A stretch of 12,029 nucleotides of DNA from a virus (IMGVR_UViG_2703718839_000007); one strand, 5' to 3'. Shown: positions 2,922 through 12,029, numbered from the stretch's first letter. Program-made: numbers and translations. Notes: generated by a model not told the origin, from the letters alone.

Positions 2922-5255
2922 TCAGGTTGTTGCAGGGTCGTCACATTTTGGCAGCCAGTCGCCGTAGCTTTCCTCTTTCAGCGTCAGGTTGGTCTGTATC
3001 CCCTGTTTGGTATGGCGCTTCTCGTAATTCAGTCCGTATTCTTTCAGCATCACCGGCAGCCCCAGCCCGAACATTTTCAGACTGAGTACATTCCGGTAGC
3101 CGTTTGCCTCCATGTAGGCCAGATAGGCGTGATAGAGGTATTTACGGTAATTACGCGGGATGATACTGGCGTTCCCCATATACATGCCGCTGGTCTGCGG
3201 CAGGGTTTCCAGATAGCCGATAAAATCAAACGTCGGGTCGGCATCCCGTTTGATGTTCAGTGCCTCGTCTGAGTTCTGCTGGGACTGAAGCAGTGACCGG
3301 GCGAGCATCGGGTCGCTGAACTTCTGCATCAGGTGACGCACGATGACCGCCAGCTCGCGGGTGATTTTGTCCTTAAGCTGCGGGTCGCGCTCCTGCGGGG
3401 CTATCTGTTCCGGGAAGTGAATAATCACCCGCCGGCGTGACACGCCGCCGCTGCGGTCGGTGAAGCGCATCGGGTTATTGTTCACGGCCAGAATCACCGC
3501 CGGGATGTGCGTGGAGTACGCATCCCGGTATTTCGGGTCAACGGACACTGCATCGCCGCCGGTGATGGCCTTGAGTCCGGCTCCGTCGCCGCTCCATTTT
3601 TCCTGGTCCGGCAGGCGTATCAGTGAGAAGCCAGTTAACGCGGCACGTTCACGCGGGGATTCCAGCGTCTCAATGGTGGCCGACGTGGCGTTATCCTCCC
3701 CGGCCAGCAGGGTGGCTATTTCGGCCATGATACTTTTGCCGCTGCCGCCGGGACCGGTCACCTCCAGAAAGAGCTGCCAGTCGTAGCGGTTTGCCAGCAC
3801 CATAAACAGTGCGGCCAGAATCACGTCGCGTTTTTCCGCACGGCCACCGGCGGCACGGTCAAGCCAGCGCCAGAACGCGGGGGCGTGGGTTTCCAGCGTT
3901 TCCCCTTCCACCGGCGGGGTGAAATCCACATCGCACAGGGTGCGCATCCAGTGTGACGGACTGTGCGGGTGGAACGTGCCGTTCTGCGTGTCGAGCACGC
4001 CGTTACGAAAGCCAATCAGGCGGCGGGAGGGGGCTTCCTGCTGCGGAATAATCAGCTTCAGGGTGTCCACCACGGAGGCCACCTTCCCGGAGGAGAACGG
4101 CGCGCGCAGCCGCTGAAACAGCCCGGCCACATCCCGGGCAAAGTCCTGTGGTGGCAGCACCTTCCAGACACCATTTTCATAACGGGACAGAAGCTGGCCG
4201 TTGGCATCAACCGCGAGCGCCTCGCCGTAATGCTCATAGATACGCATGGCCTTTTCGCTGGTACTCATGGCGGAAAACTCCGCTTCGCTCATGGTGTCGA
4301 ACGGGCTTTCAGCCGGTGGCCGGATGGCATCATAAATGGCCTTACGGGTGGCTTCCCCGCCGTACTGCGTGAAGGCATCATTCCAGTCACCGAAGACCGG
4401 CGGCAGGGCAACAACACCTTCACACGCATCTGCGGCTGCGGCGGCTTTTTTCTGGCCGTCACCGCTGAGGTCACGGTCTGCGGCAAGGACAATCTGACAG
4501 GCCGGATGCTTCTGCCGGGCAAGGCTGGCCAGAGAAAGGAGGTTCACGGAAGAAAGCGCCACCATCACCGTTTCACCGGTCAGGTGATGCACGGTAAGTG
4601 CGGTCGCGTATCCCTCCGCTATCCACAGACGTTTTCCGGCCTGATTCTGTCCTTCAAGGGTGTGACAGGTGCCCCTGACCTGTCCGCCTTTCAGGGTACG
4701 CTTACGGCCGTCAGCACTGATTAACTGAAGGTTAACCAGTTCGCCGCTGTCGTCATACAGTGGCACCACAAGGTCACCGGCGCGCCAGCTCACGCCACCG
4801 GCTCTGTGTGTGCCGGTCAGCATCCGGCATTCCCGGCCGGGAAAGCCCTTGCGGGTCAGGTAGGCGTTACCGGTTCCGGGACGGGTTTTCGCCATCAGGG
4901 TTTGTGCCAGTGCGGCGGCGTTCTTCCGGGCAGCGTCTGTTTCAGCAACGGCGGCGGTCGTCACTGCCGGGTCAGCCGGTGGCAGGCTGCCGGTCACGGC
5001 AGCCACCTTTGCGGCCGCGTCGGACGGGGAAACACCAAACACCTTTTCAACCAGTTTCAGGCCGTCACCGGCACCACACTGATTGCAGTACCAGGTGCCG
5101 CGCCCCTCCCTGTCATCAAAACGGAAGCGGTCACTCCCGCCACAGACCGGACAGGGCTGATGACGGTTCTTCAGCACCTGAATCCCCAGCGCCGGGAGAA
5201 TACGCGGCCAGTGGCCGAGCGCATGGCTGACGGTGGCGGTTACGTTCATTTTCAT
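2922..5255 (-). CDS. alpha: P4 alpha-type replication protein: primase, SF3-like helicase and origin-binding domains (777 aa)
   Basis: ATG at 5255-5253 preceded by AAGGAG. N-terminal zinc motif CPVCGGSDRFRFDD...YCNQCG, primase motif EGYATALTV, Walker A GPGGSGKS. Length 777 aa equals P4 alpha as recalled. Iteron clusters lie on both sides. Confidence 0.93.
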   Translation of the reverse strand: MKMNVTATVSHALGHWPRILPALGIQVLKNRHQPCPVCGGSDRFRFDDREGRGTWYCNQCGAGDGLKLVEKVFGVSPSDAAAKVAAVTGSLPPADPAVTTAAVAETDAARKNAAALAQTLMAKTRPGTGNAYLTRKGFPGRECRMLTGTHRAGGVSWRAGDLVVPLYDDSGELVNLQLISADGRKRTLKGGQVRGTCHTLEGQNQAGKRLWIAEGYATALTVHHLTGETVMVALSSVNLLSLASLARQKHPACQIVLAADRDLSGDGQKKAAAAADACEGVVALPPVFGDWNDAFTQYGGEATRKAIYDAIRPPAESPFDTMSEAEFSAMSTSEKAMRIYEHYGEALAVDANGQLLSRYENGVWKVLPPQDFARDVAGLFQRLRAPFSSGKVASVVDTLKLIIPQQEAPSRRLIGFRNGVLDTQNGTFHPHSPSHWMRTLCDVDFTPPVEGETLETHAPAFWRWLDRAAGGRAEKRDVILAALFMVLANRYDWQLFLEVTGPGGSGKSIMAEIATLLAGEDNATSATIETLESPRERAALTGFSLIRLPDQEKWSGDGAGLKAITGGDAVSVDPKYRDAYSTHIPAVILAVNNNPMRFTDRSGGVSRRRVIIHFPEQIAPQERDPQLKDKITRELAVIVRHLMQKFSDPMLARSLLQSQQNSDEALNIKRDADPTFDFIGYLETLPQTSGMYMGNASIIPRNYRKYLYHAYLAYMEANGYRNVLSLKMFGLGLPVMLKEYGLNYEKRHTKQGIQTNLTLKEESYGDWLPKCDDPATT

Positions 5256-7868: not shown

Positions 7869-8603
7869 ATGTCTGACAACACCATCCCTGAATATCTGCA
7901 ACCCGCGCTGGCACAACTGGAAAAGGCCAGAGCCGCTCATCTTGAGAACGCCCGCCTGATGGATGAGACCATCACGGCCATTGAACGGGCAGAGCAGGAA
8001 AAAAATGCGCTGACGCAGGCCGACGGAAACGACGCTGACGACTGGCGCACGGCCTTTCGTGCAGCCGGTGGTGTCCTGAGCGATGAGCTGAAACAGCGCC
8101 ACATTGAGCGCGTGGCACGCCGGGAGCTGGTACAGGAATATGACAATCTGGCCGTGGTGCTGAATTTTGAATGTGAACGCCTGAAAGGGGCGTGTGACAG
8201 CACGGCCACCGCCTACCGGAAGGCACATCATCACCTGCTGAGTCTGTATGCAGAGCATGAGCTGGAACACGCCCTGAATGAAACCTGTGAGGCGCTTGTC
8301 CGGGCAATGCATCTGAGCATCCTGGTACAGGAAAATCCGCTCGCCAACACCACCGGCCATCAGGGCTACGTCGCGGCGGAAAAGGCTGTCATGCAGCAGG
8401 TGAAATCATCGCTGGAACAGAAAATAAAACAGATGCAAATCAGCCTCACCGGCGAGCCGGTTCTCCGGCTGACCGGACTGTCAGCGGCAACACTCCCGCA
8501 CATGGATTATGAGGTGGCAGGCACACCGGCACAGCGCAAGGTGTGGCAGGACAAAATAGACCAGCAGGGTGCAGAGCTTAAGGCCAGAGGACTGCTGTCA
8601 TGA
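7869..8603 (+). CDS. sid: Sid, capsid size-determination external scaffold protein (244 aa)
   Basis: ATG at 7869 preceded by GAGGA at 8-nt spacing, downstream of the late promoter. Coiled-coil-like and alanine/glutamate-rich. Length 244 aa equals P4 Sid as recalled. Stop overlaps the delta start (ATGA). Confidence 0.85.
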   Translation: MSDNTIPEYLQPALAQLEKARAAHLENARLMDETITAIERAEQEKNALTQADGNDADDWRTAFRAAGGVLSDELKQRHIERVARRELVQEYDNLAVVLNFECERLKGACDSTATAYRKAHHHLLSLYAEHELEHALNETCEALVRAMHLSILVQENPLANTTGHQGYVAAEKAVMQQVKSSLEQKIKQMQISLTGEPVLRLTGLSAATLPHMDYEVAGTPAQRKVWQDKIDQQGAELKARGLLS

Positions 8604-9746: not shown

Positions 9747-9781
9747 AACTCCCCGAAAATCCGCCCGTTTTTACTGAAAAA

Positions 9782-9810
9782 AGCCATGCATCGATAAGGT
9801 GCATGGCTTT
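9782..9810 (+). terminator. Stem-loop downstream of psu, candidate terminator of the late operon
   Basis: AGCCATGCA (9782-9790), 9-nt loop, TGCATGGCT (9800-9808): perfect 9-bp stem followed by TT. The U-tract is short. Confidence 0.35.
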
Positions 9811-9910
9811 GCATGCGTTTCCCTGCCTCATTTTCTGCAAACCGCGCCATTCCCGGCGCGGTCTGAGCGTGTCAGTGCAACTGCATTAAAACCGCCCCGC
9901 AAAGCGGGCG

Positions 9911-9929
9911 GGCGAGGCGGGGAAAGCAC
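9911..9929. other. cos site: 19-nt P2/P4 cohesive-end sequence
   Basis: GGCGAGGCGGGGAAAGCAC at 9911-9929, an exact match to the P2/P4 cohesive end as I recall it, flanked by GC-rich dyads, immediately after psu. Confidence 0.75.
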
Positions 9930-10055
9930 TGCGCGCAAGGCTGATAACATAAATAAAATACAATGAACTCATTACGTTTTATTAAATGCCGCAATGATCA
10001 CACACAATAATCTATCAATAGAGGATATTAATTTAGTAACTACAAAGGAGAACGT

Positions 10056-10367
10056 ATGCGCGATAAATTCATTGATGCCATTCATAGTTGTTTAAAAATT
10101 CAGCTAACTTTTTATTCAAAAGAAGATAACGCGACAATCACAAGATTAACTGCGCCTATGGACTTCGGTCCTAGTCGTAGAGCTCATGATAAAAGTGACA
10201 GATTCCATTTTTGGGATTACGAAAGCGATAAAAAAAGTCATGTTCTCAGTTTGCAACCTGAAGCGATTGTATCTCTAGTTGTAATCCCTCAAAACTTTCA
10301 TCCGCAAGAGTTTGTTAGCTGGACGCCAAACTGGTTTATTGCCAGAGATTGGGGCCAGTACTCTTAA
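10056..10367 (+). CDS. Hypothetical small protein (103 aa), stand-alone cargo gene in the post-cos variable region
   Basis: ATG at 10056 preceded by AAGGAG (10045-10050); stop TAA at 10365-10367 followed by a terminator-like hairpin. AT-rich relative to the core. Soluble, aromatic-rich; no family recognised. Confidence 0.7.
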   Translation: MRDKFIDAIHSCLKIQLTFYSKEDNATITRLTAPMDFGPSRRAHDKSDRFHFWDYESDKKSHVLSLQPEAIVSLVVIPQNFHPQEFVSWTPNWFIARDWGQYS

Positions 10368-10374
10368 ATACATG

Positions 10375-10395
10375 AGGCTACATACGTAGCCTTTT
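10375..10395 (+). terminator. Rho-independent terminator candidate after the 103-aa gene
   Basis: AGGCTAC (10375-10381), loop ATAC, GTAGCCT (10386-10392), then TTT. Confidence 0.5.
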
Positions 10396-10515: not shown

Positions 10516-10524
10516 TGTTATACT
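10516..10524 (+). promoter_or_regulatory. Extended -10 promoter candidate for the membrane-protein operon
   Basis: TGtTATACT at 10516-10524 in an AT-rich intergenic region about 40 bp upstream of the start codon; no good -35. Confidence 0.3.
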
Positions 10525-10564: not shown

Positions 10565-11080
10565 ATGTTAAATAAGCTTGCCAAATATCTTCTTACTGCC
10601 AGCTCAGTTGCTCCGGTATTTTTTACCTTAGCTTTTCTTTCATGTATATCAAAACACTATAAATTTATGATTGCTTACTTATCATTGTGTGCAATTATAC
10701 TTTTACTGTGTGTTTTGATTGTTAAATACGCAATTAAATATAATTCTGTAACCAGTAAAAAATTAACTACCGCCTCTCCAGCAGATAAGGAGATAACAAA
10801 TTATTTCTTAACCTATTTATTTCCCTTAATCAGTGGTCCAGATGCATTTATGGATATTAGGATTGCTTCTTTCTTTGCTGTGAGTTTATTTTTTTACATC
10901 AGTTTTTCAGGTTCCTACAGTTTCAACCCATTATTATCATTTTGGGGATATAAATATTATGAAGCCGAAGACGATACAGGCGTAAGCTTTGTTATATTAT
11001 CGAAAAAGCCACTGTTAAAAGCATCAGGCAATCGTGTTAATTTGATTAAGCTTACTGATTACACATATATAGCAATATAG
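10565..11080 (+). CDS. Small integral membrane protein (171 aa, about 4 predicted transmembrane helices), first gene of a two-gene cargo operon; candidate defence component (KwaA-like architecture, unverified)
   Basis: ATG at 10565 preceded by AAGGAGG. Hydrophobic stretches at roughly residues 9-28, 34-57, 80-92 and 99-117, with a soluble C-terminal tail. Stop is 8 nt before the next gene. Confidence 0.75.
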   Translation: MLNKLAKYLLTASSVAPVFFTLAFLSCISKHYKFMIAYLSLCAIILLLCVLIVKYAIKYNSVTSKKLTTASPADKEITNYFLTYLFPLISGPDAFMDIRIASFFAVSLFFYISFSGSYSFNPLLSFWGYKYYEAEDDTGVSFVILSKKPLLKASGNRVNLIKLTDYTYIAI

Positions 11081-11088
11081 GAATAAAT

Positions 11089-11982
11089 ATGGAACTGTTT
11101 GCAATAACAGATAATACAGTTGGCACACGCATTGTAAAAATTGTTACTGACAGGCCGACTCAAAATGTAATCACACAGCTATTCAATGAACAAAAAACTT
11201 TTTTTGAAGAACGCTATACAGAAGGCGTAGAATTTTCAGGTGGCTACATCACTAGTGGAGATGAGTTTTTTGTCATTCCTGACTTTGATGATGTTATCGC
11301 TGTATTAGATGCTATTAATAATCCCACAACTATCCCTCCATGGGAGCCGGAAGAAATATCAGTCTTCAATATAATCGCTCTGTTTTCAGGCTATCCTGAA
11401 GAGGATGGAAAACCTGCAACTGCCTTAATCCAAAGCTTCGATAAAAGGCAAGTTATTGATAACAGAAGAACAATTTTCCAAAAACCATTTCAGGCAAGCA
11501 ATACCTTTTGCCAGTCTACTGAGCATGGTATAGTCATCGACAATAAGCTAACAGCTATTCTTGCAGGTACAGAATTAAAGTTTAAAAGCTTCCATATGCT
11601 CCGCAGGATATTTGATGTAGATGCTTATTTCAGAGAAGCCACTAATGAAGAATTAACAAGTTTTTCTTCTCATGAAAAATTTTCAGTAGCTCCGGGTTTT
11701 GATTTAACAACAATTGCTGACTCTGTTATTAGAAAGAAAGTTTCCTTGATTAATAAATCAAGAATACTTGAGGACTACTCTGTGACTGAGTTAAGAATAT
11801 CAGCGGCTGAAATTGGTGTTGTTCTAGAAACTGAAAAAATCGGTGAATTAGAAAAAATAAAAATGCCGCAAATAAGAAAAGATGTAAAAAGATTATTGCA
11901 TTTTTTAGATGAGGACTATTTCACATCCCATATAACCAGAACGCTATATCGCGCAAACTCTAAACGTCGAGAAGATGTTTAA
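11089..11982 (+). CDS. Soluble protein (297 aa) co-transcribed with the membrane protein; candidate defence component (KwaB-like by size and context only)
   Basis: ATG at 11089, 8 nt after the upstream stop, with AGGA upstream. No nucleotide-binding or nuclease motif recognised by eye. AT-rich. Confidence 0.75.
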   Translation: MELFAITDNTVGTRIVKIVTDRPTQNVITQLFNEQKTFFEERYTEGVEFSGGYITSGDEFFVIPDFDDVIAVLDAINNPTTIPPWEPEEISVFNIIALFSGYPEEDGKPATALIQSFDKRQVIDNRRTIFQKPFQASNTFCQSTEHGIVIDNKLTAILAGTELKFKSFHMLRRIFDVDAYFREATNEELTSFSSHEKFSVAPGFDLTTIADSVIRKKVSLINKSRILEDYSVTELRISAAEIGVVLETEKIGELEKIKMPQIRKDVKRLLHFLDEDYFTSHITRTLYRANSKRREDV

Positions 11983-11996
11983 TTTTTATAAAAGTT

Positions 11997-12013
11997 GGGG
12001 GGGGGAATCCCCC
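11997..12013 (+). other. G9-AAT-C5 hairpin or homopolymer tract after the cargo operon
   Basis: GGGGGGGGG AAT CCCCC at 11997-12013, 15 nt after the stop of the 297-aa gene; no U-tract follows. Confidence 0.3.
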
Positions 12014-12029
12014 ATAAGCGCTAACTTAA

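Follow-up and report, generated by a model that had tools for sequence, protein, structure and literature searches.

The stretch of DNA analysed here (12,029 nucleotides, IMGVR_UViG_2703718839_000007; referred to below as the window) comes from a virus and is a P4-like satellite prophage, in which the first gene after the cos site encodes a protein of 103 amino acids (ORF103). ORF103 is a real gene under strong constraint and, on the evidence of a structural model, its product is a bare WYL domain. The region 10016-10393 would constitute an autonomous one-gene cassette, with its own ribosome-binding site and a boundary hairpin, placed in the defence hotspot of the satellite, and by analogy with characterised WYL proteins ORF103 may act as a modular sensor/adaptor of single-stranded nucleic acid for defence effectors, an overall reading put forward tentatively and with slightly less than even confidence. 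The features of the cassette are as follows.

10016-10044, + strand: conserved 5′ flank of the cassette (..GGATATTAATTTAGTAAC..); homology to E. coli S1 begins at 10016, and the flank is also kept in Pantoea and Serratia
10045-10050, + strand: Shine-Dalgarno sequence AAGGAG, read from the sequence, 5 nucleotides (nt) 5′ of the ATG
10056-10367, + strand: coding sequence (CDS) of ORF103, 103 amino acids (aa), predicted stand-alone WYL (Sm-like beta-barrel) protein, WP_001205027.1, ATG start and TAA stop
10374-10393, + strand: 3′ hairpin GAGGCUAC-AUAC-GUAGCCUU, then UUAAAU, with an 8 bp stem and a 4 nt loop

A constrained gene next to cos

An earlier reading of the window made from the sequence alone (the sequence-only reading) had described a 103-aa gene with its own ribosome-binding site immediately after cos, and this description holds for the open reading frame (ORF), for the AAGGAG box and for the position, with 127 nt separating cos (9911-9929) from the ATG. 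A purine-rich box equivalent to AAGGAG is retained in five other lineages. A chance reading frame is excluded because ORF103 has 91 homologues (identity 43-99%) and 399 cluster representatives in a wider scan (see below), and because the ratio of non-synonymous to synonymous divergence (dN/dS) against three diverged copies is 0.05-0.09, a sign of strong purifying selection. Eighteen residues are invariant in the 32-sequence family alignment.

The conserved 5′ flank (10016-10044) is presumed to be the promoter-proximal region or leader of ORF103, and neither a consensus scan nor inspection by eye found a canonical sigma-70 promoter for the gene. Insertions of IS1 lie directly upstream of ORF103 in E. 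coli S1 (locus L078, 5262-5945) and in E. coli FORC_042 (H1), with the IS1 in E. coli S1 taking the place of the sequence near cos as far as ~40 nt 5′ of the ATG. In such loci ORF103 may have another promoter.

ORF103 as a predicted bare WYL domain

The view that ORF103 has no recognisable domain arose because the HMMER libraries are silent on it, with no match among Pfam, PADLOC, NCBIfam, PHROGs or PDB sequences (hmmscan against Pfam-A giving none at E <= 1 and the PDB-sequence profile search none at E <= 10); structure comparison alone revealed the fold. An AlphaFold2 model built on the family alignment (pLDDT 94, pTM 0.85) consists of one N-terminal 10-residue helix, a five-stranded Sm-like/SH3-type beta-barrel and a conserved Trp-rich tail of 23 residues, and the top twenty Foldseek matches to this model in the PDB are all WYL domains (PafBC, BrxR, CapW, DriD). 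From the model and these matches ORF103 is a bare WYL domain. The outcome of the structure-based search, which the sequence-only reading had itself proposed, is contrary to its domain-less claim, and Table S1B of Rousset et al. (2022) lists PF13280.8, the WYL domain, for the same protein by a method unstated there (PMC9122126). No N-terminal (winged) helix-turn-helix (HTH) was found in the model, where a single 10-residue helix precedes the barrel, or in the Pfam scan, and there is no C-terminal WCX dimerisation domain, the 23-residue tail alone following the barrel.

In the model F52-W53-D54-Y55 lies on strand 48-54, and these residues, like S40-R41-R42, R49, H51 and H62, are invariant or nearly so. 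S40-R41-R42 in the beta2-beta3 loop, the strand bearing R49, H51, W53 and Y55, and H62 appear to sit on the elements with which DriD binds single-stranded DNA (ssDNA), namely beta2, the beta2-beta3 loop and the WYL strand with its neighbour, a correspondence to DriD Y168, R176, R178, Y192 and R204 (PMC9186387) judged by fold position only and without residue-level superposition.

The protein was implied to be novel, yet an identical one has been published as protein 1 of system 14 in the P4 hotspot ('WYL/DUF4868', 93 loci; Rousset et al., 2022, Tables S1B and S2B; PMC9122126). All three protein sequences of system 14 are identical to those of the window, and the position between psu/cos and int is also the same. 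The comment attached to protein 1 is 'perhaps regulates the system', and the system was cloned with its native promoters from E. coli TA280 as pFR79 'WYL-Kiwa' (PMC9122126). The same three-CDS 'Kiwa' cluster is contained in the Domainator survey. ORF103 is already known and annotated as the WYL component of the published WYL-Kiwa cassette; what is possibly new is the autonomy of the module and a family-level tie to OLD nucleases, the latter lying outside the window.

A module with its own boundaries

That ORF103 is a self-contained cassette in the variable region is borne out by sister satellites, in which it is the sole cargo or has other partners, by the point at which homology to Pantoea stops and by an apparent -10 element that belongs to kwaA, the gene downstream. 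In one satellite (L091) the ORF103 homologue is the only gene between psu and int, and in two partial contigs (L092, L093) the same gene stands directly before int (71% identity). In a P4-like satellite of Yersinia enterocolitica the homologue (66% identity) lies beside a convergent PDC-S31/DUF2971 gene in place of Kiwa, and in Pantoea it is found in a defence island with HsdR and AbiE, beside a cos remnant. Every Enterobacterales copy examined in genomic context comes first after cos or what remains of cos, and ~93 of 5,251 P4 hotspot loci carry ORF103. Homologues at 45-50% identity are also carried by E. coli plasmids of 2.8-4.3 kb. In two of these plasmids, L076 (NZ_AP027752.1, 2779 bp) and L077 (CP056848.1, 4263 bp), the homologue is 106 aa long, and the next gene on its strand encodes an unannotated protein of 237 or 172 aa with no Pfam or PADLOC match. 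To judge from these contexts, ORF103 travels in modular form between P4-like satellites, small plasmids and the defence islands of many phyla.

The 3′ boundary is formed by the hairpin at 10374-10393, seven bases past the stop codon of ORF103, which is stable (-13.8 kcal/mol, z = -4.1 against shuffled sequences). Its stem is invariant and its loop differs over four lineages, E. coli S1, Pantoea and Serratia among them. At the corresponding point 3′ of the ORF103 homologue, Yersinia and the solo loci have unrelated hairpins with T-runs behind them. The further claim that the gene has its own terminator stands in part: the hairpin and the conservation of its stem are evident, but the U-tract that follows on the + strand is short (UUUUAAAU, or UUAAAU past the 8-bp stem, with fewer than 5 U in 8) and is weaker still in E. 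coli S1 (UUUCAAAU), and the terminator consensus scan lists the hairpin for the - strand only, so that an ORF103 terminator is plausible. The hairpin is probably a weak or bidirectional terminator, or a stabiliser of the mRNA 3′ end. Homology between the window and Pantoea stops at 10392, one base short of the end of the hairpin, which by this comparison appears as the module boundary of the cassette.

Downstream of this boundary lies the putative promoter of kwaA.

10516-10524, + strand: extended -10-like element TGTTATACT, putative kwaA promoter, read by eye, 40 nt upstream of the kwaA start

The element is kept as TGCTATACT in the 92% identical E. coli S1 variant, where the spacer before it has a 16-bp indel, and it is absent from the output of the consensus promoter scan. 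This putative element would belong to the Kiwa operon and lie outside the ORF103 cassette.

Family breadth and OLD nuclease neighbours

A full HMMER scan of 1.8 billion representative sequences gave the 399 family clusters (at 50% identity); the best 150 of the 399 representatives include no fusions and range in length from 63 to 190 aa, most of them having 100-115 aa. When each species was represented by a single genome, a scan found 74 loci with homologues at 45-65% identity in Proteobacteria, Actinomycetota, Cyanobacteria, Acidobacteriota, Armatimonadota, Bacteroidota, Firmicutes, Saccharibacteria and an archaeon. Neighbours were counted from greedy non-overlapping ORF sets, clustering of all ORFs having been swamped by spurious overlapping ORFs in high-GC loci. 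On this count an OLD-family nuclease (AAA_15 with an OLD-like TOPRIM) is the commonest immediate neighbour of the family elsewhere, found at that position in 18 of the 74 loci and within 4.5 kb in 23; its best PADLOC model is 'Old', with no GajB or retron partner. In most cases the OLD gene comes after the WYL gene and runs in the same direction, the interval between them being about -3 to 50 bp. AAA_13/PDC-S06 or SMC-like ATPases adjoin the homologue in four further loci, and the remaining neighbours are mixed (Mrr, methylases, CBASS E2, dCTP deaminase, LexA-like genes and housekeeping genes). No OLD gene lies beside ORF103 in the window or in the other Enterobacterales loci examined.

Within the OLD pairs the median identity is 58% for the WYL proteins and 28% for the adjoining OLD proteins, a difference that suggests a universal ligand. 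Mirror-tree co-variation of WYL and OLD identities was tried and is weak (Spearman 0.25-0.36) as well as confounded by shared taxonomy. A specific tie of the neighbouring OLD proteins to P2 Old was likewise rejected, the partner in Shewanella fodinae (L019) being only ~25% identical to phage OLD homologues. No ORF103 homologue was found by tblastn in 50,697 phage records, and literature searches for a published WYL-plus-OLD system gave nothing relevant.

Tight pairs in which a WYL-only gene comes first and the gene of an OLD-family ATPase/TOPRIM nuclease of ~600-640 aa directly after it recur in Actinomycetota, Armatimonadota, Acidobacteriota, Firmicutes and Gammaproteobacteria (L019, L024, L028, L030, L032, L052, L053, L056, L058, L064, L065, L067, L073 and others; family match at ~8001-8310 of the locus). 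In one Photobacterium and two Saccharibacteria loci an AAA_13 ABC-ATPase of 713-738 aa is found beside the WYL-only gene (L025, 8327-10468; L018, 8325-10541; L042, 5613-7802), the protein in L025 matching the PADLOC 'single-gene' candidate PDC-S06 (6.8e-268). The PDC-S06 candidate may, judging by these neighbours, have a small partner.

Proposed role and alternative explanations

The mechanism proposed is that ORF103, like the WYL domains of DriD, PafBC, CapW and WYL1, would bind a ligand arising during infection or DNA damage, either a short stretch of single-stranded nucleic acid or a nucleotide related to it, and that as a small sensor/adaptor subunit it would relay the signal to a defence effector. 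ORF103 is predicted to be unable to bind promoters, and therefore the signal would pass by protein contact. For most lineages this effector would be an OLD-type nuclease, and in the satellite of the window it may be Kiwa or some factor of the host or helper. A modular sensor/adaptor is favoured because the WYL protein is conserved across phyla, is not fused in any of the best 150 representatives, repeatedly precedes diverse ATPase-nucleases and also travels alone. A more specific version, in which the family provides the sensing subunits for single-stranded nucleic acid of 'Class 1-like' OLD nucleases, forming a new two-gene OLD class from Actinomycetota to Proteobacteria, with orphan copies on satellites and plasmids switching an OLD-type or other host or helper effector (e.g. 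YbjD, P2 Old, Kiwa) on or off in trans during infection, is doubtful as a whole.

Several observations weigh against a modular sensor/adaptor. The Pfam WYL hidden Markov model gives no HMMER match to ORF103, ligand binding is read from the fold alone without residue-level superposition, and the ssDNA pocket of DriD also requires a linker and WCX, both missing in ORF103 (PMC9186387). About two thirds of the loci have no ATPase-nuclease neighbour, some copies lying between housekeeping genes, and the WYL-Kiwa clone is listed in Table S2B under 'additional tested systems', outside the seven that were validated (PMC9122126). The remaining points concern the link with Kiwa: in E. coli, where 32 of 5,426 complete genomes carry full-length ORF103 and 38 genomes carry this Kiwa, ORF103 is always beside this Kiwa subtype and upstream of it; the E. 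coli S1 variant, 91-93% identical, retains ORF103, kwaA and kwaB together, with divergence that runs parallel in all three (synonymous divergence, dS, of 0.37/0.46/0.45); and in Serratia ficaria ORF103 is again followed by kwaA, the pairing being at 74% nucleotide identity. Together with the published comment on protein 1, these linkages favour the main rival, in which ORF103 would serve the adjacent Kiwa specifically, as regulator or accessory subunit within a three-gene 'WYL-Kiwa' variant, and would tune KwaA/KwaB activity or expression. This rival is thought unlikely, if less so than the others. ORF103 has no HTH and hence is no classical transcription factor, the hairpin and the separate promoter-like element of kwaA lie between the genes, and Kiwa has been described and reconstituted as two genes (PMC11785009). 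ORF103 itself matches neither KwaA (4-TM) nor KwaB (DUF4868), and no PADLOC model fits it. In sister satellites it stands alone or with other partners, and KwaA/KwaB was found next to the homologue in 0 of the 74 other genome loci, a count from phmmer with the proteins of the window as single queries, which a very divergent Kiwa could escape. On this count, and because Kiwa is missing from the loci of Yersinia, Pantoea and the solo satellites, universal linkage of ORF103 to Kiwa is rejected. In six E. coli genomes this Kiwa is accompanied by no more than a 73-nt remnant of ORF103; at least one of the six keeps full-length Kiwa, and several others of these loci are decaying. The survival of Kiwa without ORF103 was considered as proof of independence and is weak evidence because the one locus inspected is decaying, with a shortened kwaB and a decayed integrase. 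Most probably the cassette in the window is a unit in its own right that has accompanied Kiwa over some period, and we infer that ORF103 is no obligate or specific part of Kiwa.

An antitoxin-like inhibitor or anti-defence factor, a self-sufficient defence gene and a role in the satellite life cycle are all less well supported. As an inhibitor ORF103 would hold OLD nucleases inactive, with orphan copies neutralising host or helper OLD proteins (YbjD, P2 Old), in keeping with a small gene that leads a tight pair with a large nuclease-ATPase, with orphan copies on mobile elements that must evade defence (P4-like satellites and plasmids of 2.8-4.3 kb) and with the dedicated protein inhibitors known for Class 1 OLD proteins (PMC12392090). 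This is rather improbable given the lack of homologues in the phage records, a WYL partner far more conserved than OLD, unlike a co-evolving direct inhibitor, the low identity of the L019 OLD to phage OLD homologues, and a fold family known for ligand sensing and not for enzyme inhibition. Tin is a small protein that acts on T4 gp32. ORF103 might similarly be a self-sufficient single-gene anti-phage factor that poisons single-stranded replication intermediates or an ssDNA-binding protein of competing phages, in the manner of P2 Tin. It is the sole psu-int cargo of some satellites, in a hotspot filled mostly by known or candidate defence systems (PMC9122126); the anti-phage immunity of P2 old-tin has been confirmed (PMC9122126). 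The possibility is of a similarly low order, or marginally lower: WYL-Kiwa is outside the seven systems protective on a panel of eight phages, TIR-NLR was the sole system protective against P2-like phages (PMC9122126), ORF103 matches no PADLOC, DefenseFinder-type or PHROG model, and its frequent tight operons with OLD point to a partner-dependent role. Much the least probable is a satellite life-cycle factor, either a Rof/YaeO-like Sm-fold inhibitor of Rho complementing Psu or a cos-proximal packaging accessory. The place of the gene directly after cos or its remnant in Enterobacterales would suit such a factor, but the family occurs in Actinomycetota, Cyanobacteria, Saccharibacteria, Bacteroidota and an archaeon, which have no P4-like satellites, usually in defence contexts, and ORF103 itself is rare in E. 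coli genomes and P4 hotspot loci.

The remnant in the six E. coli genomes is the last 73 nt of ORF103 (window 10295-10367) at 92-93% identity (NZ_AP042483.1, NZ_CM167683.1, NZ_AP045167.1, NZ_CP166879.1, NZ_CP046539.1 and NZ_CP067426.1; L079, L095). In several of these genomes it lies ~200 bp upstream of a 92-94% identical Kiwa, within another island that is decaying and holds ArdC, DUF1281 and a broken integrase. Such remnants look like scars of cargo exchange.

Comparison with known systems

The cassette of the window has no sequence difference from the published WYL-Kiwa; the literature treats ORF103 as a possible Kiwa regulator, whereas the comparative data point to a separable module. The defence and DNA-damage regulators BrxR, CapW, DriD and PafBC have a wHTH-WYL-WCX architecture, whereas ORF103 lacks both HTH and WCX and has no HMMER-level similarity to them; with 103 aa and neither domain, it is predicted to be no promoter-binding switch. 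WYL1, which accompanies Cas13d in type VI-D CRISPR systems as an accessory protein, carries an RHH domain in addition, and also a dimerisation domain. At ~385 aa (PDB 6oaw) it is far larger than ORF103, whose partner is not Cas13, and WYL1 with Cas13d would be the closest functional analogy to ORF103.

The OLD proteins adjacent to the family share the 'Old' model with the Class 1 OLD nucleases (P2 Old, T. scotoductus OLD, V. cholerae OLD and E. coli YbjD) and likewise have no GajB or retron partner. Class 1 OLD nucleases are defined as single genes without conserved partners (PMC10568477), and as far as our searches show a small WYL gene in an operon with OLD falls outside the published OLD classes. 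The gop-beta-cII genes of P4 occupy the same cos-to-int hotspot as ORF103 without sequence similarity to it. The comparison with these genes that the sequence-only reading had called for, as a way of exposing an identity to P4 cII, gave scores of <= 0.4 bits for gop, beta and cII against the family profile (hmmsearch --max), and tblastn against phages including P4 gave no match, so that the identity to cII which would have told against that reading was not found.

A family of bare sensors that is 50-60% identical across phyla would imply contact signalling and a universal ligand, in contrast to known WYL sensors, which are wired to a DNA-binding domain. The WYL-OLD pairing bears on the question of the partners and activation of Class 1 OLD nucleases (raised in PMC10568477). 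Because sister satellites hold the cassette by itself, beside Kiwa or beside different cargo, it would offer a simple genetic system for studying the working of a bare WYL domain. As regards the window, the finding is one of clarification, in that the gene is real and is the WYL component of a published cassette and no domain-less orphan.

Satellite setting and flanking features

The satellite genes of the window include an AlpA/Vis-like gene, sid, delta (Ogr_Delta, 6.9e-22) and psu (Pfam Psu, 1.3e-88), and positions 9747-9910 are 98.8% identical to the right end of phage P4. The cos 19-mer marks the start, or upstream boundary, of the variable hotspot of the satellite, and 3′ of it are three + strand genes encoding ORF103, a 171-aa membrane protein and a 297-aa protein, after which the P4 integrase and tRNA-Leu come next in complete E. 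coli genomes with the same locus.

2922-5255, - strand: alpha primase-helicase
9911-9929, + strand: P2/P4 cos 19-mer GGCGAGGCGGGGAAAGCAC, an exact match, 0 expected by chance
10565-11080, + strand: kwaA, Kiwa membrane protein, 171 aa (PADLOC KwaA, 1.6e-76)
11089-11982, + strand: kwaB, Kiwa DUF4868 protein, 297 aa (PADLOC KwaB, 6.5e-117; Pfam KwaB, 2.2e-6)

Directly 3′ of kwaB, at 11996-12014, is a hairpin with a G/C run (GGGGGGATTCCCCCCCC) flagged by the scan as terminator-like on the - strand, which probably serves as terminator for both kwaB and the integrase gene that, in L001, converges on it. Beyond the end of the satellite that holds alpha and the cis replication region (crr), a 274-aa ORF (997-1821, - strand) matches the PADLOC candidate single-gene defence family PDC-S32 (5.6e-104) and adjoins a 221-aa ORF (283-948, + strand) with no PADLOC match. 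In E. coli RM7190, unlike the window, the flank on the PDC-S32 side is occupied by type I restriction-modification genes. Just downstream of alpha are two direct repeats of 120 nt (2567-2686 and 2748-2867), 83% identical and 181 nt apart, which agree in position and form with the P4 crr; two similar spurious ORFs (2372-2707 and 2628-2861) arise from these repeats.
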